From IMG/VR virus record IMGVR_UViG_2718217860_000005, positions 1 through 16,502 of that record: a stretch of DNA of 16,502 nt. One strand, 5' to 3'. Position 1 is the first letter of the stretch. Every line of letters starts with the position of its first letter. The notes under the pieces were generated by a model. The model had not been told where the DNA came from and did no database searches. It saw nothing but the letters and a program-made list of their open reading frames with translations. The stretch comes from a virus (lineage: Duplodnaviria; Heunggongvirae; Uroviricota; Caudoviricetes). Made by a program: the position numbers and the translations under genes. Positions 1 to 15,143 of the stretch are shown in pieces.

Positions 1-258
1 ATGCAAACCGTTATTTTTGGTCGTTCGGGTTGCCCTTACTGTGTGCGTGCAAAAGATCTGGCTGAGAAATTGAGCAATGAACGCGATGATTTTCAGTATC
101 AGTATGTAGATATTCGTGCGGAAGGGATCACTAAAGAAGATCTACAACAAAAGGCAGGTAAACCCGTAGAAACCGTGCCGCAGATTTTTGTCGATCAGCA
201 ACATATCGGCGGCTATACCGATTTTGCTGCATGGGTGAAAGAAAATCTGGACGCCTGA
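1..258 (+). CDS. grxA: glutaredoxin 1
   Basis: 85-aa ORF with the CPYC active site (GRSGCPYCVRAK) and full-length match to E. coli GrxA as I recall it. Followed by a hairpin terminator. Confidence 0.9.
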   Translation: MQTVIFGRSGCPYCVRAKDLAEKLSNERDDFQYQYVDIRAEGITKEDLQQKAGKPVETVPQIFVDQQHIGGYTDFAAWVKENLDA

Positions 259-267
259 TCGTCTGAC

Positions 268-300
268 AAGCCCTCGCGTTGAGGGCTTTACTGATTTTTT
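268..300 (+). terminator. probable intrinsic terminator after grxA
   Basis: 8-bp stem AAGCCCTC / GAGGGCTT (268-275, 281-288) with loop GCGTT, followed by a T-run at 295-300. The U-tract is a few nt distal to the stem, so strength is uncertain. It overlaps the ybjM stop codon on the other strand. Confidence 0.5.
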
Positions 301-665
301 CTGTGCTGTGGTTTAAACAAACTACTGATAAATAAGAAACACAGTGCCCCCAGCGCACACCAGAACACCGCGCTTAGTAACCATGCCAGCTCTTGCCAGA
401 ATGAGCGCGTCGGTGAAAAAAACAGCCGCATAATGAGCATCGAACAGGGTGCCGCCAGCATTGCGCCAAACAGAGGTTTCAGGACTTCTCTACGCTGTGA
501 AAAGAAGCTGGCGACTGCTCCAGGAAGAATGAAAAATAGCAAGCCGATTTCAGGATGCCCGGCAGCCCGAAAAGCGCCTTTCATGTGCGTCGCCAGAAAA
601 AGGCACACCACAATGAAGAGGACAAAACAGCAGATTGCCCCCGCCCAACGTTGTTTATGTTTCAC
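288..665 (-). CDS. ybjM: inner membrane protein YbjM
   Basis: 125-aa hydrophobic ORF beginning MKHKQRWAGAICCFVLF. Length and sequence match my recollection of E. coli YbjM, and grxA-ybjM-ybjL synteny is as in E. coli. Confidence 0.8.
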   Translation of the reverse strand: MKHKQRWAGAICCFVLFIVVCLFLATHMKGAFRAAGHPEIGLLFFILPGAVASFFSQRREVLKPLFGAMLAAPCSMLIMRLFFSPTRSFWQELAWLLSAVFWCALGALCFLFISSLFKPQHRKNQ

Positions 666-934
666 TCGTTCCTCCTGACACTGCGTCTATCGAACACATT
701 TTTCGCCAGTGTGGCGTTCAGTAAGATAAAGCCGCTTCGCATTCCATGCTAATATAGGCCAACGCAATTCATATAGCCGTTGATACCTAATGTGATTACA
801 CTAGTAAAATATATTGTTACTTTACTATCGTTTAGGTGCGCTGAATGAATCTGCGCCCTGAATTCTGGTAAAAAACATTATCGTAAATTACCATTTCTTT
901 CAACAGCTTACTAGTAAACAAGAAGTTAGCCTCC

Positions 935-2620
935 GTGAATATAAACGTCGCCGAATTGTTAAATGGGAATTACATTTTGTTATTATTTGTGGTCCTCGCG
1001 CTTGGGCTATGTCTCGGAAAGTTACGACTTGGTTCGATCCAACTGGGTAATTCCATTGGCGTTTTAGTCGTATCGCTGTTATTAGGCCAACAACATTTCA
1101 GCATTAACACCGATGCGCTTAATCTTGGCTTTATGCTGTTTATTTTCTGCGTCGGGGTCGAAGCCGGACCGAACTTTTTTTCCATTTTTTTTCGCGATGG
1201 GAAAAATTACCTAATGTTAGCACTGGTGATGGTTGGCAGTGCGCTGGTGATCGCCTTAGGGTTAGGTAAGCTGTTTGGCTGGGATATTGGCCTGACGGCC
1301 GGTATGTTAGCAGGCTCTATGACGTCGACACCGGTTCTGGTCGGTGCTGGCGATACACTGCGTCATTCCGGCATGGAAAGCAGGCAGCTCTCACTGGCAC
1401 TGGATAATCTGAGCCTCGGGTATGCCTTAACCTATTTAATCGGTCTGGTGAGTTTGATTGTTGGTGCGCGTTACTTGCCGAAATTGCAGCATCAGGACTT
1501 ACAGACCAGCGCCCAGCAAATCGCCCGCGAACGTGGCCTGGACACTGATGCCAACCGTAAGGTTTATTTACCGGTGATCCGCGCCTATCGCGTCGGCCCG
1601 GAGCTGGTGGCCTGGACCGACGGCAAAAATCTGCGTGAACTGGGTATTTATCGACAAACCGGCTGCTACATTGAACGTATTCGACGTAACGGGATTCTGG
1701 CAAATCCAGACGGTGATGCCGTGCTACAAATGGGCGATGAAATAGCGTTGGTAGGCTATCCCGACGCCCATGCCCGACTCGATCCCAGCTTCCGTAACGG
1801 TAAAGAAGTTTTCGATCGTGACCTTCTCGACATGCGTATCGTCACTGAAGAAGTGGTCGTTAAAAACCATAACGCTGTAGGTAAACGTCTCGCACAACTG
1901 AAGTTGACCGATCACGGTTGCTTCCTTAACCGCGTCATTCGTAGCCAGATTGAGATGCCGATAGATGACAACGTCGTGCTTAACAAAGGTGACGTTTTAC
2001 AAGTCAGCGGTGATGCCCGTCGCGTAAAAACCATCGCCGATCGCATCGGCTTTATCTCGATTCACAGCCAGGTCACTGACCTGCTGGCATTTTGCGCCTT
2101 CTTTGTTATTGGGCTGATGATCGGGATGATCACCTTCCAGTTCAGCACATTCAGTTTCGGCATGGGGAACGCTGCCGGGTTGTTATTCGCCGGAATTATG
2201 CTGGGCTTTATGCGTGCTAACCACCCGACCTTCGGTTACATTCCGCAAGGTGCATTAAGCATGGTGAAAGAGTTCGGCTTGATGGTGTTTATGGCAGGCG
2301 TTGGTCTGAGCGCCGGTAGCGGTATTAATAACGGCCTGGGCGCGATTGGCGGTCAGATGTTGATTGCCGGATTAATTGTCAGTCTTGTGCCCGTGGTTAT
2401 CTGTTTCTTGTTCGGTGCTTATGTATTGCGAATGAACCGCGCACTGTTGTTCGGCGCAATGATGGGCGCACGCACCTGCGCGCCGGCAATGGAGATCATC
2501 AGTGATACAGCTCGCAGTAACATCCCTGCGCTGGGCTATGCGGGCACCTACGCAATCGCCAACGTCCTGCTGACGCTGGCAGGGACAATCATCGTCATGG
2601 TATGGCCAGGATTAGGATAA
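935..2620 (+). CDS. ybjL: putative transporter YbjL (AAE-family permease with two internal TrkA-C-like regulatory domains)
   Basis: 561-aa ORF with a GTG start at 935 ([13 protein letters not shown]...). Hydrophobic N- and C-terminal halves flank a soluble central region. Length and sequence match E. coli YbjL as I recall it. Confidence 0.85.
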
Positions 2621-2661
2621 AACTGAAGTTGCCCTGAAAATGAAATTTTTTTGCACAACCG

Positions 2662-2690
2662 CAGAACTTTTCCGCAGGGCATCAGTCTTA
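2662..2690 (+). promoter_or_regulatory. sigma-E (RpoE) type promoter of rybB
   Basis: -35-like GAACTT at 2664-2669 (consensus GGAACTT), 16-nt spacer, -10-like TCTTA at 2686-2690 (consensus TCTGA/TCAAA), then 6 nt to the RybB 5' end at 2697. RybB is known to be sigma-E dependent. Confidence 0.6.
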
Positions 2691-2696
2691 ATTAAT

Positions 2697-2775
2697 GCCA
2701 CTGCTTTTCTTTGATGTCCCCATTTTGTGGAGCCCATCAACCCCGCCATTTCGGTTCAAGGTTGATGGGTTTTTT
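2697..2775 (+). ncRNA. rybB: RybB small regulatory RNA (sigma-E-dependent, Hfq-binding OMP regulator)
   Basis: The 79-nt stretch GCCACTGCTTTTCTTTGATGTCCCC...GGTTGATGGGTTTTTT matches the RybB sequence as I remember it, including the 5' seed. It ends in a 10-bp hairpin (CCCATCAACC 2733-2742 / GGTTGATGGG 2760-2769) plus T6 at 2770-2775. In E. coli K-12 rybB lies between rcdA (ybjK) and ybjL. Confidence 0.75.
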
Positions 2776-2855
2776 GTTGCCTAAAATTTATTCTATTTAA
2801 AATCATGAGGTTAGAAGCACTGTTTTTTAACGATGGCGACAAAATGGCGGCAGCG

Positions 2856-3074
2856 TCAAAGAGAGAGCGCCACCTGTCCTGATTTCATTGGATGCGGCTG
2901 AACCGGATTTGACTCTTTTGGCGTTGCAATCGAACGAACAAAAGTTTCATGGGTAACAAAAGTATGGCTGCAGTTAATATTCTGGCACTGGTTGTAACGC
3001 TCTTTGGTCAATGAAGATACCTGAAAACTGCTGCGAGTATGGGCGGCACTTCCACACAGTGGGCAAATCATCAT
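2856..3074 (-). CDS. ogr: Ogr/Delta-family zinc-finger late-gene transcription activator
   Basis: C-x2-C-x22-C-x4-C motif (CPLCGSAAH...KERYNQCQNINC) and clear similarity to P2 Ogr. Starting at the ATG at 3074 gives 72 aa, the same length as P2 Ogr, with a GGGGAGA Shine-Dalgarno about 9 nt upstream. The ORF track's GTG at 3107 would add 11 residues. Confidence 0.8.
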   Translation of the reverse strand: MMICPLCGSAAHTRSSFQVSSLTKERYNQCQNINCSHTFVTHETFVRSIATPKESNPVQPHPMKSGQVALSL

Positions 3075-3164
3075 TTTTCGAGTTCTCCCCATTTTTGCTA
3101 AATTCACAATAATGATACCGCATTATTCCATTTTGCAAACTTAAAAGTTCTCCATTGCGAAGAA

Positions 3165-4265
3165 TCATTCCATTTCGAAATCATCAATCCTCACTTCAAG
3201 CTCCAGACTGGTCGTAAAACCGTTATCCGGGCTGACGGTATGCGTCAGAGTCGTAATGGTCCATTCCGCATCATCTATCGGCTGTTTAAAGCCACTGACT
3301 TTCACTGGCATTTCCGTGTAGAGATCTGCCCGACCTTCCGCCAGTTGTAGCGAGAATGACGCAACGCCGCGTTGCAGGCGTTCCCACTGCATTTTCGCCG
3401 CTCGTTCGGCGTTGCTCCGGTTGGCATAAGTGCGATTAAGTACCAGCACGTTTTCATCCGTACCCACCAGGTAATCGCCCTGCTTCGCTTCCGGCTCTTT
3501 CTTCTGCTTCTTAGTCCTGCGCTTACGCTTCACCGTGGTGCTTTCTTTCTTCGAGGGTTCGCGAGTATGCAACCAGCTGGCAATTACGCCCGTGTAAGCT
3601 CCGCGATCTGCCAGGGTAAAGCGGTGACTGTCGCCGTCCTTACGTGTGATAGTGATCACCGGCAGTGGTTTACCGCTGGCACTTTTACCCTGTCCCTGTC
3701 GGATGAATAACAGATTGCCATTTTTCACTGACGCGATAGCACCGTACTGGCGCGCCAGCCGCATCAGAAAACTGCCGTCACTCTCATTAGTCTGGTCTAT
3801 ATGTTCCACGGGCTTATCCGACAGGTCATTACCCAGTGCCATCTTCAGCTTGTGACGCGCGGCTATTTCCTTGACCACTTCCCCGACAGTGGTCTTGTGC
3901 CACGACTTTTCACGGCGGGTATTCAGCGTTTCACGAAAATCAGCACTTCGCGCCCGGATAGTCAGGCGGTCCGGTGCGCCAGTGTGTTCAATCTCGTCCA
4001 CCGTGAATGCCCCTTTCGGGAAAAGCGGCTGCCCCTTCCAGCCCAGCGCCAGCGTAATGACCGCACCACGGCGCGGCAGCGCTATTTTTCCATCGGCGTC
4101 GTCCAGCTCCAGATCAAGCTGGTCCGCTTCAAAGCCCCGGTTATCCGTCAGCGTCAGCCTCATCAGGCGGTTATCCAGCACAGTGGTGATATCCCTGCCC
4201 TCAATACTGATGCTGAATGCGGGAGTTTTGTTGCCTTTGTTAAGCAGTTCAGAGCTGAAATTCAC
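3165..4265 (-). CDS. D: P2 gpD-like tail protein
   Basis: 366-aa ORF in the position of P2 gene D (between U and ogr) with matching length class. Start overlaps the U stop (ATGA). Identified by synteny and recalled similarity to gpD. Confidence 0.75.
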   Translation of the reverse strand: MNFSSELLNKGNKTPAFSISIEGRDITTVLDNRLMRLTLTDNRGFEADQLDLELDDADGKIALPRRGAVITLALGWKGQPLFPKGAFTVDEIEHTGAPDRLTIRARSADFRETLNTRREKSWHKTTVGEVVKEIAARHKLKMALGNDLSDKPVEHIDQTNESDGSFLMRLARQYGAIASVKNGNLLFIRQGQGKSASGKPLPVITITRKDGDSHRFTLADRGAYTGVIASWLHTREPSKKESTTVKRKRRTKKQKKEPEAKQGDYLVGTDENVLVLNRTYANRSNAERAAKMQWERLQRGVASFSLQLAEGRADLYTEMPVKVSGFKQPIDDAEWTITTLTHTVSPDNGFTTSLELEVRIDDFEME

Positions 4266-4747
4266 GACAGCAGCCCTCCCACCGTTTTACTGATATCACT
4301 TAAGGCAGATGTTGCCGTGTCCTGCAGATTATTCAGTTGCGTACTGAGATCACCGAACATATCGGACAGGGATTCATCCACCCGTTTGAGCGACAGGGTG
4401 AACTCAATCCGCCGCGGCATACCGTCGCGGAAAAACTCCGTTTTAGTCAGATTCAGTCCCTCAATCACATACATGCCGTAAATCGTGCCGCTGCCTTCAA
4501 TCAGGGGCCATGCTTTTCCCTGTTCTGCCATCTGCTCCAGAGCCAGCAACGACAGCCTGCCGCCCGTTATCTCCGGCATAAGAACACCAGAAAGCGTCAG
4601 CATGTCGTTGTCCGGTCCCAGAAACTGCGTGGACGGACGACGGTTTACCCGGCTGTTTGCCGCATGTCGCCAGCTGCGTTGATACTGCAGTTCCTGATAC
4701 GGAACGGTGCGCAGCATAAACACGTACAATCCCAGCACCATCATCAT
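4262..4747 (-). CDS. U: P2 gpU-like tail protein
   Basis: 161-aa ORF (P2 gpU is about 159 aa) between T and D, with ATGA overlaps at both ends. Confidence 0.75.
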   Translation of the reverse strand: MMMVLGLYVFMLRTVPYQELQYQRSWRHAANSRVNRRPSTQFLGPDNDMLTLSGVLMPEITGGRLSLLALEQMAEQGKAWPLIEGSGTIYGMYVIEGLNLTKTEFFRDGMPRRIEFTLSLKRVDESLSDMFGDLSTQLNNLQDTATSALSDISKTVGGLLS

Positions 4748-7700
4748 GCGTCGTATCCCCCCTGATCGCTGTAGTTACTCCTGGCTTTTGCCTTCAGCCT
4801 GCGTTCACGTTCATCAAGCTGGCGTGCCACCTCCCGCGCAATATCCTGCGCACTTTGTCCTGGCTGCATCTGAATGATGATCTGCGTCGGTGCCTCAATC
4901 CTGTAAACGGGCGGCACAGTGGCTGCACGACTCACCATCGCTTCGCCGCCTTTCGCGGGAAGTGCCAAAGGATGCAACGGTGGAAGCTCTGCAGGCGCGG
5001 CAGCAACGCCCATCATTCCGGCAACAACGGCAGCCAGTGCAGCTGTATTTCTCCGGCTGGTCACATTTGCCGGGCCGTTAACAATTTCCGGCCCGTTTTC
5101 ACCGACGATGCCAAACTGCCCGCGCGGGATATAGCCGCCGCTGTCATACATCCCCGCAAAGCCATATCCCCATGACGGAAAACCACCCGATGGCATCATC
5201 ACTTTACCGTTTGTATTCACCGTCGCAGGTTGCTGACGCGTCACACTTTCCGGTAGTTTCGCCTTTGCGGCCTCTTTACTGACAACGCCGAGTTTCTCCA
5301 GCAACCAGGAAACGCCGGATTTCAGGGAGTCCAGCGGATGCATGACCATATTCAGCCCTTCCGCCAGTGCCTCCCCGAATCGCCGCCCCATTGCCGCTGC
5401 ACTCTGCAGTTCGGCAGAGGTTGACTTAACGGGCGTCAGCAGATCAGTAAACCAGCCCCACAGCGCCTGTACTTTGTCGCCAATCCACTGGAACACGGGC
5501 TTAAGCGGTTCGAATGCTGCACTGACGGGACCTGCCGCCGCTTTGAATCCTTCCACCACGCCACCAAGAAATGCGGTGATGGGTTGCCAGTATTTCCAGA
5601 CAACCAGCGCCACGCCCGCCAGTGCAGTAACCACAAGACCTATCGGACTGAGCAGAGCACCTAACAGACCAGATACGGCATACAGGGCAACGCGCAGCAT
5701 CGCCAGTGGACCAGATGCCAGTACTCGCAGCACCGTGCCTGCGGCGGCCAGTCCACCACGCAGTACCGCCAGAGGATTCATAAACATCACAGCAACAGCA
5801 CGTAAACCGGATAATCCAGACCGCAAAAGTGCAACCGGCGCACCTGCTACAGTTTTCAGGACATTTCCCGTCAGTGATGCCGTGCGGCGCAAAGACGACA
5901 ACGGCGCAGTAAGTAAACCCGCAGCGTGGCCCGATGAAGCAAGCCCGCGTCGCAGCAGTGCCAGTGGTGCGCCAGCCAGCCAGGACAACGCGCTGCTGGT
6001 TCGAGTTACTGCTGCCGTAACGGAAGGTAACGTTTTGATACCCAGCACAGAGAACCCCAGACGGATCACTGCCAGCGGCCCCAGCACTGCAGCTAACACC
6101 ACCGCTAAGGTGCCGAGGCCCACGGTAACCGCAGCCACAACAGCCGCCGCTTTCATCAGTGTGCCCGTCAGTTCCGGGTTAGCTTCCACCCAGCGACGCA
6201 ACGCCCCCGTGACGCTTTTCACCGTGAACAGAATATCCATCAGCGGCTGGCGCAGCGTTTCGCCCAGGCTGCTGAAGGTGTTCTGCGCTCCGGTTTTGAC
6301 CAGCAACCACTGAGCAGAAAGTGAGTCTTTGTTGATGTCGGATTCTTTCTGCATGGAGCCGAGCGCATCATTGCCCGCTGTCAGTTTTAGCTGGCGCTGC
6401 AGTTCCGGCAGGTTGTTTGCCAGTTTCGCCGCGTCATCGCCAAACTCTTTACCAAACAACATGGTCATGGCAGACAGGCGCTTATCCTGCGGCAGCGCGT
6501 TCACCTTCTCCAGCACGCGCTGGATGGTTCCCATCGCATCCTTCGTCATCTGCTTTTCAATCACTTCAGGATTGAGTTTCAGCAGATTCATCCCTTCAAA
6601 GAAACTCTTGCTCTGCATGGTGGCAATGGACAATTCACGCACCATCGCGTTTGCTGCACTGGCTGCAACCTCTGGCGCAGCGCCCAGTGTCAGGAAGGTG
6701 GAACCCAGCGCCGCCGCTTTACGATAATCCAGACGATCAGCCACACCGCCCAGGCGTTGCATGACATCAATGATGTCTGCCCCTTTCGACATGGCGTTAT
6801 CATCCAGATAGTTCAGCGCATCACCGAGCTGTTCAATATTGCGGGTAGGGATTTTGTAGAGCTGGGCGATTTTCCCCAGACTTTCTGACAGTTCATCCGC
6901 TGGCAGCTCAAAGGCTGTTGCCGCCTTTGCTGCCGTACTGGCTAAGGCCAGCAGGTCACGTTTCTGGTCCTCCCAGCTGTCGTCAGGGTTTGCAACGTTC
7001 ATACGCGCACCACCTTCAACCAGTGCAGCGAAGTCCACCGCACCGTTTTCCATCGGCAACTGTTCGCTGGCAGCTTTGATGGCATCCTGCATTTCATAAA
7101 AACGTGCAGTGCGGTTGCCATTATCGTCACGCAGACCATTGACCTGCTTTGCCACACCTTTCATGGCATCTTCCATGCTGGTATAGCTTTTTACTGCCGC
7201 CATCACTGGCGTCCCCATTGCCAGCCCTGCCGCCGTGGTGGTGGCTCCGGTTCCTGCGATGCGATCGCGCACCTCCAGCGAACGGGCATAACTGGCACGC
7301 GCTGCATTCATCCTGCGCTGAGCTTCCCCCAGTCGCTTCAGCCGCGCCTCCTGTTTCGACAGTTCCTGGTTATAACGTGATGTTTCACGGGCTAAACGGG
7401 CAGTTGCTCCCGCATCATCTTTCGCAGAAATTCCCGCCCGGTACAGTTCTGCACGCACAAGCGCCGTTTGCTTCTGCAAATATTTTTGTTGTTCTTCCAG
7501 GCGTTGGACTGCCAGTGTTTGCCGACCTAAAGCCACAAGGTGCCGTTGTGATGGTTGTTCCATCGCTTCCAGCTCAGAACTAAGCAAATTTGCCTTCTGT
7601 CTGGCATAGTTCAGCCTGTCGCCTAACTTTTTGTTATCGGCCTGCAGCTTGCGAAATTTTTCCAGGCTGTTACCCGCCTGATTGAGTTGCTTTAATGCGT

Positions 7701-7821
7701 CACGGGAGTTTCTGATTGCGCCAGCCAGCTCTTTCGAACTGGCCTGTGCAGCACGGAATGGGCGGGTGAGTTTGTCAACCGCATTAAGAATGACCTGCAG
7801 GCGCAGGTTATTATCACTCAT
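4744..7821 (-). CDS. T: tail tape measure protein (gpT-like)
   Basis: 1025-aa ORF directly after E/E'. The N-terminal third is coiled-coil-like (repeated Q/E/K/L/R heptad-like stretches) and the central region is very Ala/Gly/Leu-rich and hydrophobic, as is typical of tape measure proteins. It starts MSDNNLR, overlapping the E' stop. Confidence 0.85.
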   Translation of the reverse strand: MSDNNLRLQVILNAVDKLTRPFRAAQASSKELAGAIRNSRDALKQLNQAGNSLEKFRKLQADNKKLGDRLNYARQKANLLSSELEAMEQPSQRHLVALGRQTLAVQRLEEQQKYLQKQTALVRAELYRAGISAKDDAGATARLARETSRYNQELSKQEARLKRLGEAQRRMNAARASYARSLEVRDRIAGTGATTTAAGLAMGTPVMAAVKSYTSMEDAMKGVAKQVNGLRDDNGNRTARFYEMQDAIKAASEQLPMENGAVDFAALVEGGARMNVANPDDSWEDQKRDLLALASTAAKAATAFELPADELSESLGKIAQLYKIPTRNIEQLGDALNYLDDNAMSKGADIIDVMQRLGGVADRLDYRKAAALGSTFLTLGAAPEVAASAANAMVRELSIATMQSKSFFEGMNLLKLNPEVIEKQMTKDAMGTIQRVLEKVNALPQDKRLSAMTMLFGKEFGDDAAKLANNLPELQRQLKLTAGNDALGSMQKESDINKDSLSAQWLLVKTGAQNTFSSLGETLRQPLMDILFTVKSVTGALRRWVEANPELTGTLMKAAAVVAAVTVGLGTLAVVLAAVLGPLAVIRLGFSVLGIKTLPSVTAAVTRTSSALSWLAGAPLALLRRGLASSGHAAGLLTAPLSSLRRTASLTGNVLKTVAGAPVALLRSGLSGLRAVAVMFMNPLAVLRGGLAAAGTVLRVLASGPLAMLRVALYAVSGLLGALLSPIGLVVTALAGVALVVWKYWQPITAFLGGVVEGFKAAAGPVSAAFEPLKPVFQWIGDKVQALWGWFTDLLTPVKSTSAELQSAAAMGRRFGEALAEGLNMVMHPLDSLKSGVSWLLEKLGVVSKEAAKAKLPESVTRQQPATVNTNGKVMMPSGGFPSWGYGFAGMYDSGGYIPRGQFGIVGENGPEIVNGPANVTSRRNTAALAAVVAGMMGVAAAPAELPPLHPLALPAKGGEAMVSRAATVPPVYRIEAPTQIIIQMQPGQSAQDIAREVARQLDERERRLKAKARSNYSDQGGYDA

Positions 7822-8250
7822 CGTTAGCCCCGCTTCTCTGAATCGCTTTATACCGCCATTCCAGCACTTCGGTCAGCGGCATAACGTCAGTAACGGATGG
7901 CGGCCAGTGAAAGATGGTGGCGATATCAGCCACCAGATCGTCAACCGTCAGGCTGTCGGTAAACCGGCAAGCACCGACTTCTTCAACAAAAAAGTGACAA
8001 CCTCAACCGACATAGCGGTGAGATCTGCCGGGTCCATCTCTGCAATTTCCTGTGCAGTCAGTGCCGGGCTGGAGATGCGGGGGATCACGGTCATCATCGC
8101 GTTCACATCCATATCCATAATGGCCTGCAGGCGTGTACCGCGCAGTGCACCAGACTGCGGTTTACGCAGCACAATTTCGGTGATTTCCGTTTTACCGCGC
8201 TTGATAGGGGTATCCAGTTGAATAGTCTTTTCAGTCTGCTTATCGCTCAT
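7814..8250 (-). CDS. tail assembly chaperone E+E' fusion (programmed -1 frameshift product)
   Basis: Hand translation: the E frame reads ...ACT TTT TTG (T86 F87 L88). After a -1 slip on T TTT TTG (minus strand, 7993-7987) the new frame continues GTT GAA GAA GTC GGT ... for about 54 codons to a TGA at 7816-7814. The predicted fusion is about 142 aa, the size of P2 gpE+E', and ends just inside the T start region. Confidence 0.7.
7948..8250 (-). CDS. E: tail assembly chaperone gpE (zero-frame product)
   Basis: 100-aa ORF with an N-terminus resembling P2 gpE (TIQLDTPIKRGKTEITEIVLRKP...). It is preceded by an AGGA Shine-Dalgarno and contains the slippery heptamer near its 3' end. Confidence 0.8.
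   Translation of the reverse strand: MSDKQTEKTIQLDTPIKRGKTEITEIVLRKPQSGALRGTRLQAIMDMDVNAMMTVIPRISSPALTAQEIAEMDPADLTAMSVEVVTFLLKKSVLAGLPTA
7987..7993 (-). other. -1 programmed ribosomal frameshift slippery heptamer T-TTT-TTG
   Basis: Plus-strand CAAAAAA at 7987-7993 is TTTTTTG on the coding (minus) strand, in X-XXY-YYZ register with the E frame. The same heptamer is used in the P2 E/E' frameshift. Confidence 0.7.
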
Positions 8251-8275
8251 TTTGTTGTCCTGTAAATTGGGTTCT

Positions 8276-8293
8276 GGCGCGGAATCCCGCGCC
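8276..8293 (-). other. GC-only hairpin in the FII-E intergenic spacer
   Basis: GGCGCGG-AATC-CCGCGCC (7-bp stem) lies between the FII stop (8305) and the E start (8250). No U-tract follows on the transcribed strand, so it is more likely an RNA stability or attenuation element than a full terminator. Confidence 0.4.
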
Positions 8294-8304
8294 GTTCAGA
8301 TACA

Positions 8305-8820
8305 TCAGAGGCCGAGGGCGTTGCGGTGCGCTTCCATCAGGTCCACACCGTCCACAATTTCCACCATGTTGATAAGGTCCACTTCATAGAGCACCTCACC
8401 ATTGATAGTCAGCTTCGCGTAGCTGTTGGTACTGGTCACTTTGGTGGTGTTGCTTTCGCCCGTCTTCCACTCACCGGAATCCACTTCTTTGTGACGTCCG
8501 CGCACCACAAGCTCCACGGCCTGCACTTCCCCGGTATCGTCACGCTGGATAGAGCCGGTAAAGCGCAACTGGATACCATCCACCGTGGCTTTGCCCATCT
8601 GCTTAAACAGCAGCAGTTCAGTACCACCAATGGAAAATTCCGTATCCAGTGCGCCGTCATCCAGCCCCAGATCAACATCCACTGCACCCGGCATTCCGCC
8701 GCCGCGATACTTCTCATATTTGCGGGTGAATTTCGGCAGCGTCAGCGACTCAACGATCCCCTGCCAGTTGTTCCCGTCATTAAACAGGTTCAGGTGTTTT
8801 AATTTGCGTGGTAAAGCCAT
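8305..8820 (-). CDS. FII: tail tube protein (gpFII-like)
   Basis: 171-aa ORF (P2 FII is about 172 aa) 9 nt downstream of the sheath gene, in the order sheath-tube-E/E'-tape measure. Confidence 0.85.
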   Translation of the reverse strand: MALPRKLKHLNLFNDGNNWQGIVESLTLPKFTRKYEKYRGGGMPGAVDVDLGLDDGALDTEFSIGGTELLLFKQMGKATVDGIQLRFTGSIQRDDTGEVQAVELVVRGRHKEVDSGEWKTGESNTTKVTSTNSYAKLTINGEVLYEVDLINMVEIVDGVDLMEAHRNALGL

Positions 8821-8829
8821 GTTGTCCCC

Positions 8830-10002
8830 TTACGCGCTGACCTGGCTGGAGAAATTCACCAGGTACTGATCGGTGATGCGCTGACGCAGCATCAGGTTTT
8901 CAAGTGGCGGCACTGGTGTGTAGTCGTAGTCGATGGTGAGTTTTCCAGCTTTCAGAGTGTCTTTGTCGTTCACCGACTCATCCAGCCAGCAATCGCCACC
9001 AATGAGATAGCCCTGACTGATCAGGCTGCGCATTTTGGCGCGGATACCTTCGATAATGTCGCGGGCCAGCGACGGATTCAGCGGTTTGTCGACAGCCCAC
9101 ATTGGCGCTTCTGCCATCGTGTCCATCAGCACCTGCGCCGTGCGGGTGTTGTTTTCGAAGGCAAAGAGTGGGTCATCACTCAGACAGCGGGAACCCCAGA
9201 AGCGAAAGCCGTCTTTGCGGATAAGTGTGGTAACATCGTTCTGGTTAAGCAGTCCCGCATCAGTTGCCGGGTCCTGCAGATCCCAGAACACATCAGCAGA
9301 AATTCCAGTGACACCGTTCACGCCCACGTTGGACAGGCTTTTGTGCCACCCTGTCTGCTCATCAATTTTGGCACGCAGACCAAGCGCACGGGCGGTGGCA
9401 TATGCCGTTGCGTCGGCATTCAGCACCGTGTCCCAACCAGTAAAGTCAGGCCAAATCAGCATCCCTTCACGCTGACTGAAGTTTTCACGGTAAGTGATCG
9501 CCTCCTGCACCGTCTTGCAGCCATACGCTGACAGGTAAGCAAACCCACGCAGGCTTTGCGCCACGCCCAGCAACTCAGTAGCAACGGCTTTATTATCGTG
9601 CCCCGGCACGCCGAGGATGCGCGGTTTAACACCGAGCTGTGACTGGGCAGATAACAGGGCTTTCATACCAGTTTTTTTACCTTCAGCAGTCACTGCGCCG
9701 ATGATATTGGTCGTGGTTTCTTCTTCCGTTTCACCCTGCGGCACACGCACAACAACGGTCACGGGTTTTGCCTGGTCAGCGATGGCATCCAGCGAGCGGG
9801 CCAGCGTACCGGATTCACCCGCCTTACCGCTGGCAGTAAGCACATCAGTGATTAGCACGGGTTTATTAAGAGGGAACATTTTTGCATCGGCATCATCGCC
9901 CGTGCAGACCATGCCCACGATGGCGGTGCTCACCGTGGTAATGGATCGAGTGCCTTCGTTGACTTCAACAACGCGCACTCCGTGGTGGTAATCCTGAGCC
10001 AT
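8830..10002 (-). CDS. FI: contractile tail sheath protein (gpFI-like)
   Basis: 390-aa ORF (P2 FI is about 396 aa) with a strong AGGAGG Shine-Dalgarno about 9 nt upstream. It is the first gene after the intergenic region carrying the late-promoter dyad. Confidence 0.85.
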
Positions 10003-10078
10003 AGTGGCGAACCTCCTGATTGGATTAGGCTTCGCCCTATGTTGAAGTGATTGTGTCTGACAAGCAGCTAAGCGCAGT

Positions 10079-10096
10079 TGTACCGTTATTCACACA
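10079..10096 (-). promoter_or_regulatory. Ogr-type late promoter element (PF-like), TGT-N12-ACA dyad
   Basis: The coding strand reads TGT-GTGAATAACGGT-ACA. Its centre is about 85 bp upstream of the FI ATG, compatible with a dyad centred near -55 and a leader of about 30 nt, as described for P2 late promoters. Confidence 0.55.
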
Positions 10097-10108
10097 AAAT
10101 GACGGTAT

Positions 10109-10522
10109 TTATCTGCTTGCAGGGAAAACAGGCCAAATAATATCAGGTGCGGTGCTGGTATCTGTTGCCGTCACAGCCTCGATATAATCCAGCACAACGT
10201 TAAGTCGGGTAGTTTCCTCTTGCGTCAGTTTGCGCCCGGCCTGCAGCTTTAACTGAATCACGCTGATATTGACCATTGCTGCGTCTATCAACGACTGTTT
10301 TTTCTGTTCAGCGTCAGCTACCAGTTCATCATGAGAACGTTCCGGAGTGGGTGGTGCAGTAAATACCCCGTCTGAATACGCCCAGCCGATTCCGGGCTGC
10401 TCACTGATATCAGAAATATTAATGAGCTGCAGATTATCCGGCACAGTGAATTCATCCTCGCCATCCCAGACAATGACATTCACAACCATCCCATTTTCAA
10501 TAACTGCATATGACGCATTCAT
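10109..10522 (-). CDS. tail fiber assembly chaperone (Tfa / gpG-like)
   Basis: The C-terminal motif DTSTAPDIIWPVFP matches the conserved Tfa C-terminus (lambda Tfa has ...VDTSTAPDIEWP...). The ATG at 10522-10520 shares its A with the TAA stop of the fiber gene (TAATG coupling). The ORF track's upstream start at 10546 would overlap the fiber C-terminus. Confidence 0.75.
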   Translation of the reverse strand: MNASYAVIENGMVVNVIVWDGEDEFTVPDNLQLINISDISEQPGIGWAYSDGVFTAPPTPERSHDELVADAEQKKQSLIDAAMVNISVIQLKLQAGRKLTQEETTRLNVVLDYIEAVTATDTSTAPDIIWPVFPASR

Positions 10523-12441
10523 TATGCAAACTCCTCGATAATACAAACCCCATCAGCACCTTTCCCGCCCGTCATACTGGTTCCGCTATAACCTGCATCG
10601 TATGCACCACCTCCGCCTGAACCAAATGCCCTGCCTCTAACGCCACCGCCAGCGCCTGCGCGTCCACCGCCACCCCAGTACGATGTTCCGCCTTCACCGC
10701 TGACGCCGATATTTCCGGACTGACCGTCGCCTCCATCTCCACCAGTGATGCGGATATCGCCAGTACTCGGCACACCTCCGTTACCGCCGTTTGTGTTTGT
10801 AACACCCACTTTCCCGCCACCTTCGCCACCAGGAGCAATTAACGATGCGAATACGCTATTCCCGCCCCTGGTGCCGTTCGTTGCACTAACACCACCGGCC
10901 CCACCTGCGCCGATAGTGACTGGATAACTATTCTGTGTCGGGGTCATTATTGAAATTATTGTTCCACCGGCCCCACCGCCAGCACCGAAAAACGTTTCAT
11001 TATTGGATGTAGCCTTGCAGCCGCCCCCTCCGCCACCGCCGCCCGTTATTGTGACCCTGATCCGTTTTGTTTCTGGTGATGGGGTATACGTACCTGATGA
11101 CGCGAAAGCCCGGGTACTCAGCCGGCGTCCCACGTATCCGCTTGTATCTCCCAAACCAAGATAACGAATAACCTCCTGTTTGCTTGTTTTAGCCAGAATA
11201 TCCCGTCCAACATTAGTCAGGGTTGTCAGGCTGGCTGTATCATTCCCCGTAAAATACGGTAGTTTGTCTGCCGCAGTGGCAAGGCCTGCCAGTGCGGTCA
11301 GTGTGGCGTCGGCAGGTTGTTTTCCATTGGCAAGGTCATATACAGCCTTCACAGCTTTTGGTGTGGCAGCCTGCGTTTCTGACGTGCTGTTAGTGGCGCT
11401 GCTGAGTTGCACGGTACCTTTTACCGTCAGTGAAGCTGCAGGCACATCCGTTATCTGGCTCCACGGGTGCGTGTGACTGACAGGTGCCTTACCTGCTGCA
11501 AGGTCATATGCCGCCTTCACTGCCTTTGGTGTGGCAGCCTGCGTTTCTGACGTGCTGTTAGTGGCGCTGCTGAGTTGCACGGTGCCTTTTACCGTCAGTG
11601 AAGCTGCAGGCACATCCGTTATCTGATTCCACGGGTGTGTGTGACTGACAGGTGCCTTACCTGCTGCAAGGTCATATACAGCCTTCACTGCCTTTGGAGT
11701 GGCAGCCTGCGTTTCTGATGTGCTGTTAGTGGCGCTGCTGAGTTGCACGGTGCCTTTTACCGTCAGCGAGGCTGCAGGTACACCTGTTATCTGATTCCAC
11801 GGGTGTGTGTGACTGGCGGATGCTTTACCTGCTGCAAGATCATATGCAGCCTTCACAGCCTTCGGTGTTGCGGCCAGTATTTCGGATTCACTGTTGGTCG
11901 CACTGCTTAACTGAGTAAAACCTTTTGCGGTCAGCGAGGCGTCCGGGTGACGTCGTGACTGTTCGTGCTCTGATATTTTGTCATCCACATACTTGCGGGT
12001 TGCCAGCACTACAGCAGGGTCGATTTTCAGGATGATATTGTCCGTACTGCTGGTAATCAGCACCATGCGCACGGTCTGGGTACGCCCACTGCCTTCAGCC
12101 AGTTGCGGCTTATAGCTTTCCGGGCAGTTACCCACGGCAATCAATGCCCCGGACTCATCAAACAAGCCCACTTCACGTATCCACCAACCGCCCTCGTTTT
12201 CAGGGATCACCTGTTCAGCAATAATCTGGCTGCTGTTCTGCGGGTCGATATAAAGCATATTCAGCGCAGCCCGGCGTTTCTCATTTACCAGTGCCGTCTG
12301 CTTTGCGTCCGGCGTTGGCAATACTCCGCCGCCATCGCCCACCGCCATATGGGTAATTTTTAGCGGCACACCGAGCGCGGCGGCGCTGGCAAGTTTCGCC
12401 GCGCCAATATCCGTCAGCAGGGTATAAAATTTTGTGCTCAT
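10522..12441 (-). CDS. H: tail fiber protein (gpH-like N-terminus, phage fiber repeats, glycine-rich C-terminal domain)
   Basis: 639 aa. The N-terminal approx. 165 aa resemble the P2 gpH baseplate-attachment region (MAVGDGGG, SYKPQLAEGSGR, HEQSRRHPDASLTAKGFTQLSSATNS). Then come 3.7 tandem 56-aa repeats of the SSATNSTSETQAATPKAVK type, and the last approx. 175 aa are roughly one-third glycine. Confidence 0.85.
   Translation of the reverse strand: MSTKFYTLLTDIGAAKLASAAALGVPLKITHMAVGDGGGVLPTPDAKQTALVNEKRRAALNMLYIDPQNSSQIIAEQVIPENEGGWWIREVGLFDESGALIAVGNCPESYKPQLAEGSGRTQTVRMVLITSSTDNIILKIDPAVVLATRKYVDDKISEHEQSRRHPDASLTAKGFTQLSSATNSESEILAATPKAVKAAYDLAAGKASASHTHPWNQITGVPAASLTVKGTVQLSSATNSTSETQAATPKAVKAVYDLAAGKAPVSHTHPWNQITDVPAASLTVKGTVQLSSATNSTSETQAATPKAVKAAYDLAAGKAPVSHTHPWSQITDVPAASLTVKGTVQLSSATNSTSETQAATPKAVKAVYDLANGKQPADATLTALAGLATAADKLPYFTGNDTASLTTLTNVGRDILAKTSKQEVIRYLGLGDTSGYVGRRLSTRAFASSGTYTPSPETKRIRVTITGGGGGGGGCKATSNNETFFGAGGGAGGTIISIMTPTQNSYPVTIGAGGAGGVSATNGTRGGNSVFASLIAPGGEGGGKVGVTNTNGGNGGVPSTGDIRITGGDGGDGQSGNIGVSGEGGTSYWGGGGRAGAGGGVRGRAFGSGGGGAYDAGYSGTSMTGGKGADGVCIIEEFA
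11326..11940 (-). repeat. in-frame tandem repeat array, 168-bp period, about 3.7 copies, inside the tail fiber gene
   Basis: CAGGTGCCTT recurs at 11481 and 11649, a 168-bp offset, and the blocks 11470-11640 and 11640-11810 are near-identical. Protein copies cover residues 168-223 (diverged), 224-279, 280-335 and 336-372 (partial). Confidence 0.85.
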
Positions 12442-13043
12442 GGATTCACTCTCATTGTGTCAATAACATGGACCGCCCCGCCTTCATGCGCGGTGCCACC
12501 GGAAATAATCGTTTCGTTGATATACGGATAGATCGTGATTTCTTCGCCAAGATAGCTGGCGGCTCCCACCCAATGCGGGCCGCTGGTCTGCAGATTGATG
12601 GACATGCCGATCATGTGGCGGCTACATGGTTTGGCATCGCTTATCAGTCGCTCAAGTTCCAGATAGGTATCTTCAGTGATACCCTGGTCCTGCACGCCGA
12701 TATCCAGGCGAAACGTGCCCGGTGCCTCTCCGGTCTGCCACCACTCAATAATGCGGATCAGAAAGCCGAACGGCTCCACCACCCGCCGCACGGCACTGGT
12801 GGTCCCTTTATGCTGATGAATATAAAAAGCATCCTTCACCACCTGGCGCTTGACGCTTTCTGTCCAGCCCTCGTCCCAGCGATCTACAGAGAACGCCCAG
12901 GCGAGATAAGGCAGGAAACTGACCGGACAGGTTGCCGGATTCCACAAGTCACGAAGCGGCACCTGCAGATCAGAAATCCCGCTGCAGGTTTGCGCCAGTC
13001 GGCGCTCCAGTGGTGTTGAACCCGGTGGCAGCAGACTATTCAT
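12438..13043 (-). CDS. I: baseplate assembly protein (gpI-like)
   Basis: 201-aa ORF. The motifs RDLWNPATCP and LPYLAWAFSVDRWDEGW align with P2 gpI as I recall it. Overlaps the J stop and the H start (ATGA). Confidence 0.8.
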   Translation of the reverse strand: MNSLLPPGSTPLERRLAQTCSGISDLQVPLRDLWNPATCPVSFLPYLAWAFSVDRWDEGWTESVKRQVVKDAFYIHQHKGTTSAVRRVVEPFGFLIRIIEWWQTGEAPGTFRLDIGVQDQGITEDTYLELERLISDAKPCSRHMIGMSINLQTSGPHWVGAASYLGEEITIYPYINETIISGGTAHEGGAVHVIDTMRVNP

Positions 13044-13944
13044 CCGTTCCTCCGTTGGTTACGCTCCACTGCGTACATGATGCCGCCTGTGTTTTGTTCA
13101 GGACCACATCCTCCAGAGGAGAAGCCAGCTCCACACGCTGCACACCCTCAACATGCAGGGCGGCAAAGATGGCGCTACGGCGAATATCCCGACCAAGACG
13201 CGTCTGACTGGCGATGTACTTCTGCAGGCTGGCTTTTGCCGCTGCCATTACCGGCTCTGCTTCCGGTCCAGGATAGAGAAAAATGGTGGCTTCCACGCGA
13301 TACGGGATGATTTCTGCGCTGCGAACCGTAAGACGGTCAGCCACCGGGCGGACGTTCTCACTGTTCAGAGCTTTTTCCACCACGTCCAGCAGGTCTTTTT
13401 CTGCAGTTCCGTCGCCTTCGCGGCTAAGGACAGTCAGCACCACCTCTGCAGGTGCCGGGCTGGTTGCACTGGCATCCGCCACCCGACCGTCGGCGCTTCG
13501 GGCATGAAATTCATAAGCTGCAGTTGGCCCCGCAACTGAAAGCCCTTCAAAGGCTGCAGGCACACGCAGGCGTAACGCTTCATCGCTTTCCATCACAGCT
13601 GCAACGGGCGGCACAGCGTCATTATCAGCAGGCGTCACCGTCAGGCGTTTCACGTTGTAGTTGGCAGCGAGCTGGTCAAGATCGCTGCCCATCGCGTAAG
13701 CCACCATCACAGCCTGCGCGGCTTCGTTAATGCGCTGGCGCAGAAGCAACTCACGGTAAGCGTTCTCCTGCAGCAATTTGGTGACGGGTTCAGATTCCAG
13801 TTCCAGCGTGCGGATCACTGCTTCCTGCTCATCTTTCGGATGAAGCGCAACAAATCCGGCCTTGCGTTCGGCAAGCAGCGTCTCAAAGTCCGGCACATCC
13901 ACAATCTGCGGCGCAGGCAACTGCGAAAGGTCAATCACTGCCAT
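13036..13944 (-). CDS. J: baseplate assembly protein (gpJ-like)
   Basis: The N-terminus from the internal Met (MAVIDLSQLPAPQIVDV...) aligns with the P2 gpJ start, so I place the start at 13944, giving 302 aa as in P2. The ORF track's 13983 start adds 13 residues that overlap W. Confidence 0.8.
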   Translation of the reverse strand: MAVIDLSQLPAPQIVDVPDFETLLAERKAGFVALHPKDEQEAVIRTLELESEPVTKLLQENAYRELLLRQRINEAAQAVMVAYAMGSDLDQLAANYNVKRLTVTPADNDAVPPVAAVMESDEALRLRVPAAFEGLSVAGPTAAYEFHARSADGRVADASATSPAPAEVVLTVLSREGDGTAEKDLLDVVEKALNSENVRPVADRLTVRSAEIIPYRVEATIFLYPGPEAEPVMAAAKASLQKYIASQTRLGRDIRRSAIFAALHVEGVQRVELASPLEDVVLNKTQAASCTQWSVTNGGTDE

Positions 13945-14290
13945 TCTCTGCTCCTGTTGATACTGAAAGGGACACAGGCACACCGTTATTCCGCCGCCCG
14001 GTCAGCTCCACCACCATTGAACCGTCAAAATTGCTGTTAATAGTGATGGAATCCAGCGTCAGCCGTGGCTCCCAGCGACTCAGTGCCACATACACAGCCG
14101 ACATAACCTGCAGGCGTAACGCCGGATTTTGTGGCTGATCTATCAGTGCCGACAGCAGGGAACCATATTCCCGACGGGCAATGCGGCTACCCTGCGGCGT
14201 CAGCAGAATGTCCCGCACCGACTGGCGCAGATGGTCAATATCAGTAATGGCTTTACCGTTGGTATTGTTCATCCCGCTATAAAGCGTCAT
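13931..14290 (-). CDS. W: baseplate wedge protein (gpW-like, T4 gp25 family)
   Basis: 119-aa ORF between V and J (P2 gpW is about 115 aa), with the lysozyme-like gp25-family pattern (LLTPQGSRIARREYGS). ATGA overlap with V. Confidence 0.8.
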   Translation of the reverse strand: MTLYSGMNNTNGKAITDIDHLRQSVRDILLTPQGSRIARREYGSLLSALIDQPQNPALRLQVMSAVYVALSRWEPRLTLDSITINSNFDGSMVVELTGRRNNGVPVSLSVSTGAENGSD

Positions 14291-14865
14291 ACCGGGCCTC
14301 CGGTTGTGTCGCCGCCTTTCAGGACGCCAGTATGCTGATGCGCATCAACCACGATCCCGTTAGAACTCATTGCTCCGCCGCCCTGGGTAACGCCACCATT
14401 GATCACCACTTCGCTGTTAATGCGCGTGCGGTCAGCCTCCAGTACAAACTCACTGGTTTTCATGGTGATGTTGTCAGCGGCCTCAATGACCATTGATTTG
14501 ATGCCCCTGACATACCAGCGCCCGGTGGCGGGTTCATATTCAAACCAGCCACCGTCCGGGTATTCCGTCACGTTGCCGTCCTCAGAGCCTGAAGGTGGCG
14601 GAAACTGGTTTGAGTAGACCGCAGGCAGGGCAAACGCGGTTTCCAGATTGCCGCCAAGGCTGAACAGCACAACCTGCTCACCCACAGACGGTTTCCACCA
14701 GGTGCGCGATTTGCCCGCGCGCAGTGTCAGCCAGTTAATCCAGTTGGTTTCGAGGTCGCCAGTTTTCACCCGACACAGCCAGTTTGCCCTGTCCACTTCG
14801 GTGACTACACCTGTGCGGATCAGGTTGGTGATAAGGCGCATGATTTCGGTTAATTGTGCGTTCAT
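14287..14865 (-). CDS. V: baseplate spike/hub protein (gpV-like)
   Basis: 192-aa ORF. The N-terminus (NLIRTGVVTEVD...) and the C-terminal HQHTG...GGDTTGGPV region align with P2 gpV. It is the first gene of the V-W-J-I-H-tfa block. Confidence 0.8.
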   Translation of the reverse strand: MNAQLTEIMRLITNLIRTGVVTEVDRANWLCRVKTGDLETNWINWLTLRAGKSRTWWKPSVGEQVVLFSLGGNLETAFALPAVYSNQFPPPSGSEDGNVTEYPDGGWFEYEPATGRWYVRGIKSMVIEAADNITMKTSEFVLEADRTRINSEVVINGGVTQGGGAMSSNGIVVDAHQHTGVLKGGDTTGGPV

Positions 14866-14911
14866 AGGGAAAGGTTGCCATCAATAGCAAGCAGTAGACA
14901 GCCTTTGTAAT

Positions 14912-14929
14912 TGTATTAGACATAGAACA
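14912..14929 (-). promoter_or_regulatory. candidate Ogr-type late promoter element (PV-like), TGT-N12-ACA dyad
   Basis: TGT-TCTATGTCTAAT-ACA on the coding strand. The centre is only about 55 bp upstream of the V ATG, which would imply a very short or absent leader, so this call is tentative. Confidence 0.4.
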
Positions 14930-15085
14930 AATGCCTTTCAATGGTCTGCGTTAGAGCATTAATACGTTGCAAAAGGTCGAATGACGTTGCGCAAGTTAAG
15001 AAGTTCAATGCTCTTAAAAAAGCACTTGAAAGCAACGCCTTTAATTATTAAAAGCCAATTAATTTAGGCGGTTACTATGTTATCT

Positions 15086-15120
15086 TTGACACAAAAGATG
15101 TTTATTGACAATATATAAGT
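15086..15120 (+). promoter_or_regulatory. candidate sigma-70 promoter region for the DUF262 gene
   Basis: Two TTGACA hexamers (15086-15091 and 15105-15110) and an AT-rich TATATAAG stretch (15112-15119) lie 25-60 bp upstream of the ATG at 15144. The exact -35/-10 pairing is ambiguous. Confidence 0.4.
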
Positions 15121-15143
15121 TCAATCTAACAAGGAGAAAAATT

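Follow-up and report, generated by a model that had tools for sequence, protein, structure and literature searches.

The rybB locus

The window analyzed in this study is the whole stretch of 16,502 nucleotides of a virus record (IMGVR_UViG_2718217860_000005), and it opens with chromosomal rather than phage genes. A cmscan search identified the small RNA RybB (RF00110) at positions 2700–2778 with a score of 105.3 bits (gathering score, 40; E = 3.3e-21), and the match was full length, covering model positions 1–79 of 79. The gene itself was placed at 2697–2775 on the plus strand as an intact 79-nt unit, based on the RF00110 match and on identity with the annotated 79-nt rybB of Escherichia coli K-12 MG1655. 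Comparison with K-12 and EDL933 revealed no difference across 2697–2778, that is, all 79 nt of rybB and the next 3 nt. Upstream of the gene there was a single change from both strains, G to A at 2695 (position −2). This change is restricted to the lineage of the window (the window and genomes L001 and L006), and G is found in other E. coli, lysogenic or not. A link between this change and lysogeny was considered and rejected, as other lysogens do not carry the A.

The rybB promoter region (2664–2691, plus strand) contains GAACTT at 2664–2669 and TCTTAA at 2686–2691. It matches the K-12 and EDL933 sequences and is putative here; the RybB literature describes rybB transcription as sigma-E dependent and the action of the RNA on omp mRNAs as Hfq dependent. 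The intrinsic terminator of RybB occupies 2731–2775 on the plus strand, with a stem formed by 2731–2742 and 2760–2771 and a T6 run at 2770–2775. A simple terminator scan of 2550–3250, limited to loops of 8 nt, returned no matches; the RybB hairpin was missed because of this loop limit, and folding was therefore used instead. The predicted fold had a free energy of −25.2 kcal/mol (z = −3.3) and is consistent with the Rfam consensus structure. The description given in the initial annotation, namely that RybB, its promoter, and its terminator hairpin plus T6 run are intact at 2662–2775, was thus confirmed, with 2695 as the only altered position.

The conserved chromosomal gene ybjL, encoding an aspartate:alanine antiporter, lies upstream of rybB at 935–2620 on the plus strand, as an open reading frame that is named ybjL in identical genomes. 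The ybjL–rybB synteny is kept across Enterobacterales. The full chromosomal context ybjL–rybB–rcdA was recovered, with ybjL upstream in the window and rcdA following the prophage in identical genomes, and this synteny was seen in approximately 100 species loci.

Organization of the prophage

Downstream of rybB, the first gene is ogr (2856–3074, minus strand), a late-gene activator whose product is an Ogr/Delta zinc-finger protein (Pfam Ogr_Delta, 6.7e-22; 72 aa in RefSeq). Its stop codon is at 2856–2858 on the minus strand, and 80 nt separate it from the RybB 3′ end, in agreement with the distance first noted. A P2-type tail and baseplate module comprising D, U, T, E/E′, FII, FI, G, H, I, J, W, and V follows at 3165–14865 on the minus strand, as determined from open reading frames and the annotation of L001 and L006. 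Off-diagonal BLAST matches also showed that the tail fibre gene H (10522–12441) contains internal repeats at 11330–11907, with an offset of 168 bp and approximately 90% identity.

The remainder of the element was read in two genomes, L001 and L006, that are 100% identical to the window over 2500–3200; L001 shares 99.99% identity with the window over 1–15645. In these genomes the prophage is approximately 33 kb long. Starting from ogr, it runs through tail and baseplate genes, lysis genes, and capsid and terminase genes to a replication gene, then a 186-type cI/CII/Fil switch, and finally a tyrosine integrase, beyond which the chromosome resumes with rcdA and ybjJ. This is the gene order of P2/186-like phages (Peduoviridae), with ogr-D-U-T-E-FII-FI...V at one end and int at the other. 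The left attachment site (attL) described below was likewise read from these genomes rather than from the source genome of the window.

The integrase gene lies outside the window, next to attL, and its product contains Int_N (2.7e-32) and Phage_integrase (4.1e-22) domains according to Pfam. It shares 55% identity with the SopEPhi/RE2010 integrase, 49% with that of HP1, and 36–39% with integrases of the WPhi/P2 type. As judged from sequence, it is classed as a separate specificity clade within the P2/HP1 family. Williams is said to have described, in 2002, the integration of elements of the P2/HP1/P4 integrase family into the 3′ ends of tRNA and tmRNA genes.

A cargo slot is located between int and the phage attachment arm on the integrase side (P arm), at 33086–33808 in L006, 18280–19032 in L009 (strain STEC306), and 12123–13351 in L010. 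In the prophage type of the window, the slot holds a 240-aa open reading frame with a weak HEPN-like match (E = 0.0055, below the Pfam threshold); elsewhere it holds a DUF2971 gene (STEC306) or a Panacea-domain gene with a hypothetical gene (CPF6). With all three cargo types, a 20-nt repeat of the P arm is still found approximately 113 bp before the attachment core. In the prophage type of the window, the cargo insertion has replaced the last 14 codons of int, whose former tail now forms the end of the new open reading frame; the copy in the window itself may have lost its mobility. The STEC306 prophage (L009, 2279–6600) is heavily deleted, with the tail sheath fused near the capsid genes and the terminase frameshifted, and it carries a cargo pair of an S8 peptidase and an AAA ATPase. 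This decayed copy remains at the site with both attachment ends intact.

The window ends within an insertion sequence. Its last 109 bases (16394–16502) begin with GGAAGGTGCGAATAAG directly after a CTAG target, and we take GGAAGGTGCGAATAAG to be the IS5 terminal repeat. The 16394–16502 segment is multi-copy in E. coli, with as many as 42 occurrences in a single genome and further copies on plasmids. The IS5 copy interrupts a cargo gene (15144–16393) that is named elsewhere as a GmrSD (DUF262) restriction endonuclease; this gene is intact in AR_0019 and carries IS1 at another position in CFSAN064035. A search with 14900–16502 showed that the exact insertion junction at 16393 is absent from all genomes in the collection.

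Attachment core and breakpoints

BLAST comparison of the window with the empty loci of K-12 and EDL933 showed that chromosomal homology stops at 2791–2795, and the match to a free-phage record, that of Klebsiella phage KP12, sets in at 2765. The breakpoint is therefore at the RybB terminator, and not away from rybB. Regular-expression searches, alignment, and the BLAST breakpoints defined a 27-bp core, ATGGGTTTTTTGTTGCCTAAAATTTAT, at 2765–2791, which is common to attL, attR, attB, and attP; the aligned sequences were those of the window and of L001, L006, L002 (EDL933), L005 (K-12), L003, and L004. The core overlaps the last 11 nt of rybB, comprising the last 5 nt of the terminator stem and the T-run. 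These results bear out the initial annotation, which had predicted that the right attachment site (attR) and its core would lie within about 2733–2855 and probably overlap the RybB terminator.

The direct repeat that had been expected at the far end of the element was also found in genomes carrying the same element. In L006 the core is present at 573–599 and at 33882–33908, and the integrase-end copy, ATGGGTTTTTTGTTATCTAAAATTTAT, lies beside int and rcdA. By chance, two 300-bp junction regions would be expected to share a 27-mer with at most two mismatches 1.6e-8 times. One core copy is present, between rybB and rcdA, in the empty sites of K-12 and EDL933, where only 19 bp separate these two genes; no prophage is present there, as had been stated for K-12. 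Unoccupied attB was also found in strains EC21Z-048 and ‘clone D i14’.

On the phage side, attP is contiguous in KP12 in the order int, core (2617–2643), and ogr, and is thus located between int and ogr. The integrase gene and core also adjoin in Escherichia phage ESSI2_ev040, and the integrase of that phage shows 86% identity. With the ogr stop of the window at 2856, this arrangement matches the expectation that a P2-type attP lies between ogr and int and that ogr becomes the last prophage gene before attR. Klebsiella phage 4LV2017 has an annotated attL and attR with an identity of only 19 bp, ATGGGTTTTTTGTTGCCTG, compared with 27 bp (imperfect) in E. coli. This shorter identity results from a different host flank.

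Several features of integration at the 3′ end of an RNA gene are seen here: the core is present at both ends of the element, attB occurs empty in other strains, rybB is unchanged, and the integrase gene is next to attL. Together, the repeated core, the empty sites, the attP sequences, and the overlap with the RybB terminator support the proposal that the 3′ end of a small RNA gene is used as an attachment site. It is thus very probable that the segment is the attR of a P2/186-like (Peduoviridae) prophage integrated at the rybB 3′ end by tyrosine-integrase site-specific recombination.

Probable strand-exchange zone

The first 14 bp of the core, ATGGGTTTTTTGTT (2765–2778), correspond to the last 11 nt of rybB plus 3 nt: ATGGG, with which the terminator stem closes (5 nt), followed by T6 and then GTT. 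This segment was identical in all attP, attB, attL, and attR sequences examined, except for the attL of L001, which has G to T at core position 5. The variable positions of the core are 15, 16, 19, and 24. In attR, positions 15–27 begin with GC and co-vary with the adjoining phage arm (P′ arm) in a Klebsiella lysogen and in six E. coli/Escherichia lysogens, of which L001 and L006 represent the same element.

In attL, positions 15–27 correspond to a host allele that is also present as an empty site. An AT-type attL was found in L003, L006, L009, and L010, and the same type occurs in the empty sites of L132, L033, and K-12. More specifically, lysogens L006 and L009 have ATCTAAAATTTAT in attL, an allele also present in the empty sites of EC21Z-048 (L132), L033, L021, and L111, and lysogens L003 and L010 have ATCTAAAACTTAT, the allele of the empty K-12 site. 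The attL of strain 95-3322 is of the GC type (GCCTGAAATTTAT), and its flank is exactly that of the empty GC-type strain ‘clone D i14’. Because the sequence to the right of position 14 is host-derived in attL and phage-derived in attR, we infer that both strand exchanges, with their exact cleavage positions, fall within 2765–2778. This placement is based on seven lysogens and three attP sequences, and mismatch correction in a longer heteroduplex could blur it.

Alternatively, the crossover could occur downstream of rybB, at core positions 17–27, which would make rybB a mere neighbour of an intergenic attB. This reading would account for the E. coli repeat reaching 16 bp past the RybB 3′ end, with CT.AAA.TTAT common to attL and attR. 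However, the attL/attR identity in Klebsiella ends at position 19, and E. coli attL and attR differ at positions 15 and 16, with attL 15–27 following the host allele even where the host is of the GC type. Moreover, G was present at position 15 in all three attP sequences, and the attR allele of the window, GCCTAAAATTTAT, was found in none of 47 evenly sampled non-lysogens. Despite differing flanks, the junction in Serratia, Kluyvera, and Klebsiella also comes directly after the T-run. An intergenic crossover is accordingly highly improbable; the 19-bp identity in Klebsiella, the attP alleles, and the host-tracking attL all speak against a crossover beyond core position 16, and such a position was rejected.

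Arms of the attachment site

With strand exchange placed inside the 14-bp segment, the whole gap from the crossover zone to ogr (2779–2855, 77 bp) is phage DNA and constitutes the P′ arm of attR, as indicated by homology to KP12 and by block conservation. A column profile of 22 distinct diverged junctions revealed three conserved blocks with unconserved sequence between them, which correspond to 2765–2783, 2801–2813, and 2834–2853 in the window.

The second block contains a candidate IHF-like site, AATCATGAGGTTA, at 2801–2813 on the plus strand, with one mismatch to WATCAANNNNTTR. A relaxed form of this pattern (AATCA-N5-TTA, scanned as [AT]ATCA[AT]NNNNTT[AG]) was present in 19 of 118 species-level RybB loci, mostly at exactly 25 nt after the T-run. 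The third block is a 20-nt candidate arm-type integrase site, TGGCGACAAAATGGCGGCAG (2834–2853, plus strand), composed of two TGGCGRC units 11 nt apart, or one helical turn. When up to four substitutions were allowed, this 20-mer was found in 23 of the 118 species loci, and 21 of these 23 had it exactly 58 nt after the T-run.

A second copy of this 20-mer is located in the P arm, where it falls within the 3′-terminal part of int (at 33769 in L006, 2503 in L004, and 1240 in L131), 183 bp upstream in attP. The P arm also contains two tandem AACTTATTGTTTT repeats. The sequence beyond int can form a hairpin, AACCCGUUU-ACAU-AAAUGGGUU with a U-run behind it (−9 kcal/mol), and this hairpin resembles a terminator for int transcription. 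Overall, arms and core are arranged as would be predicted for an intasome in which a bending protein acts together with integrase sites of the arm type and the core type.

Proposed model of integration and expected effect on RybB

A model of integration can be proposed from these features. The attP core, between int and ogr, would be supplied by the terminator-like hairpin that the phage itself carries after int: the 3′ half of this hairpin exactly matches the end of the RybB terminator (ATGGG + T6 + GTT). Two terminator-like hairpins with shared 3′ halves would thus be brought together, with strand exchange inside the 14-bp identity at 2765–2778. An exchange at this position would rebuild an unchanged rybB at attR and leave the phage hairpin at attL. 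The 77-bp P′ arm, with its IHF-like site and the 20-nt repeat shared with the P arm, probably serves intasome assembly, and the integrase and IHF are predicted from the motifs to bind there.

The initial annotation had suggested that integration could alter the formation of the RybB 3′ end. This suggestion finds no support in the sequence, since the 79-nt RNA is identical to that of K-12 through 3 nt past the T-run. Beyond the T-run, the first difference from an empty allele comes at 4 nt for the K-12 type and at 8 nt for the EDL933 type. The unchanged RybB sequence is explained by the copy of the rybB 3′ end that the phage carries, and integration would be expected to have no effect on RybB.

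It is conceivable that integration changes the formation of the RybB 3′ end or the RybB level through the altered downstream sequence or through antisense transcription from ogr during induction. The DNA downstream of 2778 is phage-derived, and ogr transcription is directed towards rybB. A search of the minus strand between ogr and rybB (2860–2776) for an ogr terminator yielded no terminator-like structure in the scan, and the fold was no better than those of shuffled sequences (z = +0.69). As no convincing terminator was found between the two genes, antisense transcription may occur during induction. On the other hand, no base differs from K-12 in RybB, including its hairpin and T6 run, or in the 3 nt that follow; the agreement with the EDL933 empty allele extends a further 4 nt, and empty sites are polymorphic at the same positions that change upon integration. 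The presence of the insertion in approximately one in five E. coli genomes also suggests that it carries no strong cost. An effect of this kind is therefore very unlikely, and the reconstruction of an unaltered rybB is the preferred reading.

Distribution of the insertion and polymorphism of attB

The rybB–ogr junction (attR) was found in 1,119 of 5,426 complete E. coli genomes, and the junction between the P arm and rcdA (attL) was found in the same number. The two junctions occurred together in approximately 1,119 of these genomes, leaving approximately 4,300 unoccupied. Outside E. coli, ogr or D directly follows rybB in Klebsiella, Kluyvera, Serratia, and other Escherichia species. The distance between rybB and rcdA ranges from approximately 0.1 kb to more than 8 kb across Enterobacterales.

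Several copies at this site show signs of decay. The copy in the window has a cargo insertion in the int 3′ end as well as the IS5 insertion, sister genomes carry IS1 and ISKox3 within the element, and the STEC306 copy is heavily deleted. These observations could suggest that the adjacency of rybB and ogr is a fixed remnant of an ancient event with no active attachment site. However, occupancy is patchy, being spread over many lineages within the 1,119 of 5,426 genomes, and the prophages at the site differ in P′ arm, cargo, and tail fibres. Matching attP sequences are present in free-phage records, and the same junction architecture recurs in many genera. We thus regard a fixed remnant as extremely improbable and retain site-specific integration at rybB.

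Three common attB alleles were distinguished at core positions 15–27, with classes of 15, 11, and 18 among 47 sampled non-lysogen rows. Based on one checked genome per class, these correspond to GCCTGAAATTTAT, ATCTAAAATTTAT, and ATCTAAAACTTAT, respectively. The GC allele GCCTGAAATTTAT is shared with E. albertii and E. whittamii and is probably the ancestral Escherichia allele. Four substitutions within 10 bp set the K-12 allele ATCTAAAACTTAT apart from GCCTGAAATTTAT. The string ATCTAAAACTT occurs again immediately after RybB in an Enterobacter hormaechei genome (L025), ahead of a 2.2-kb insert. From Serratia to Klebsiella, GTTGCCTGAA is kept after the T-run, and the sequence beyond differs.

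We tentatively raise the idea, which we consider rather unlikely as it stands, that the flank 3′ of RybB has been shaped by mobile-element traffic and not by ordinary mutation. If this were true, integrating elements would homogenise and occasionally overwrite the host attB. Off-centre recombination in the repeat at prophage loss could then overwrite attB and leave readable footprints of lysogeny in empty genomes.

Comparison with known systems and significance

Insertion of P2-type prophages at rybB has been described before. For E. coli W, B, and Crooks, Archer et al. give the ‘rybB ncRNA’ as the place where the P2-type prophages are inserted, and rybB has also been given as a P2-like integration site more recently (Archer et al., 2011, PMC3032704; Hochhauser et al., 2023, PMC10121019). 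According to the parts of these papers considered here, the prophages Rybb*W, Rybb*B, and Rybb*Cr share their site, their P2-like type, and their host species with the element in the window, and variable defence cargo is a feature of the published rybB prophages as well as of the window type. In those same parts, the site is given without a dissection of the core, the crossover zone, or the arm motifs, and no essential difference is otherwise apparent (PMC3032704, PMC10121019).

In Klebsiella pneumoniae, the Kpn38RybB island is a Fels-2/P2-like prophage located ‘precisely within the gene for RybB’ (Hudson et al., 2014, PMC4048246). Compared with the E. coli element, phage 4LV2017 (KY271398) and related Klebsiella phages show approximately 99% identity in the integrase, 95–98% in the P arm, and 97.5% on the ogr side.

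Bobay et al. (2013, PMC3603311) discuss phages that target small RNA genes, ryeE (cyaR) and ryeB being earlier cases. The premise that P2-like elements use the 3′ ends of small RNA or tRNA genes is thus documented for cyaR/ryeE (PMC3603311) and for rybB itself (PMC3032704, PMC4048246, PMC10121019). P2 at cyaR, seen as the ogr-D′ remnant of K-12, resembles the rybB element in that ogr adjoins the RNA gene, the tyrosine integrase targets the terminator-proximal 3′ end, and the attP copy rebuilds the gene. The two differ in the target RNA and in the integrase clade, the rybB integrase having 36–39% identity with the P2/WPhi type and 49% with that of HP1. A literature search for rybB together with attB returned nothing relevant, and rybB is mentioned in PMC3318445 only as a core small RNA.

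The prophage at the rybB 3′ end is therefore real, was correctly interpreted, and is already known; it is an ordinary feature of approximately one-fifth of complete E. coli genomes, and rybB is an established hotspot for P2-like prophages with anti-phage defence cargo. Beyond correct annotation, the finding has little consequence. What is added here is a base-level map of the 27-bp core, the 14-bp exchange zone, and the P′ arm motifs at fixed spacing across genera. This map can be used to set precise prophage limits, to type attB alleles, and to design attP × attB assays, and it argues that lysogeny at rybB should spare the envelope-stress regulator RybB.
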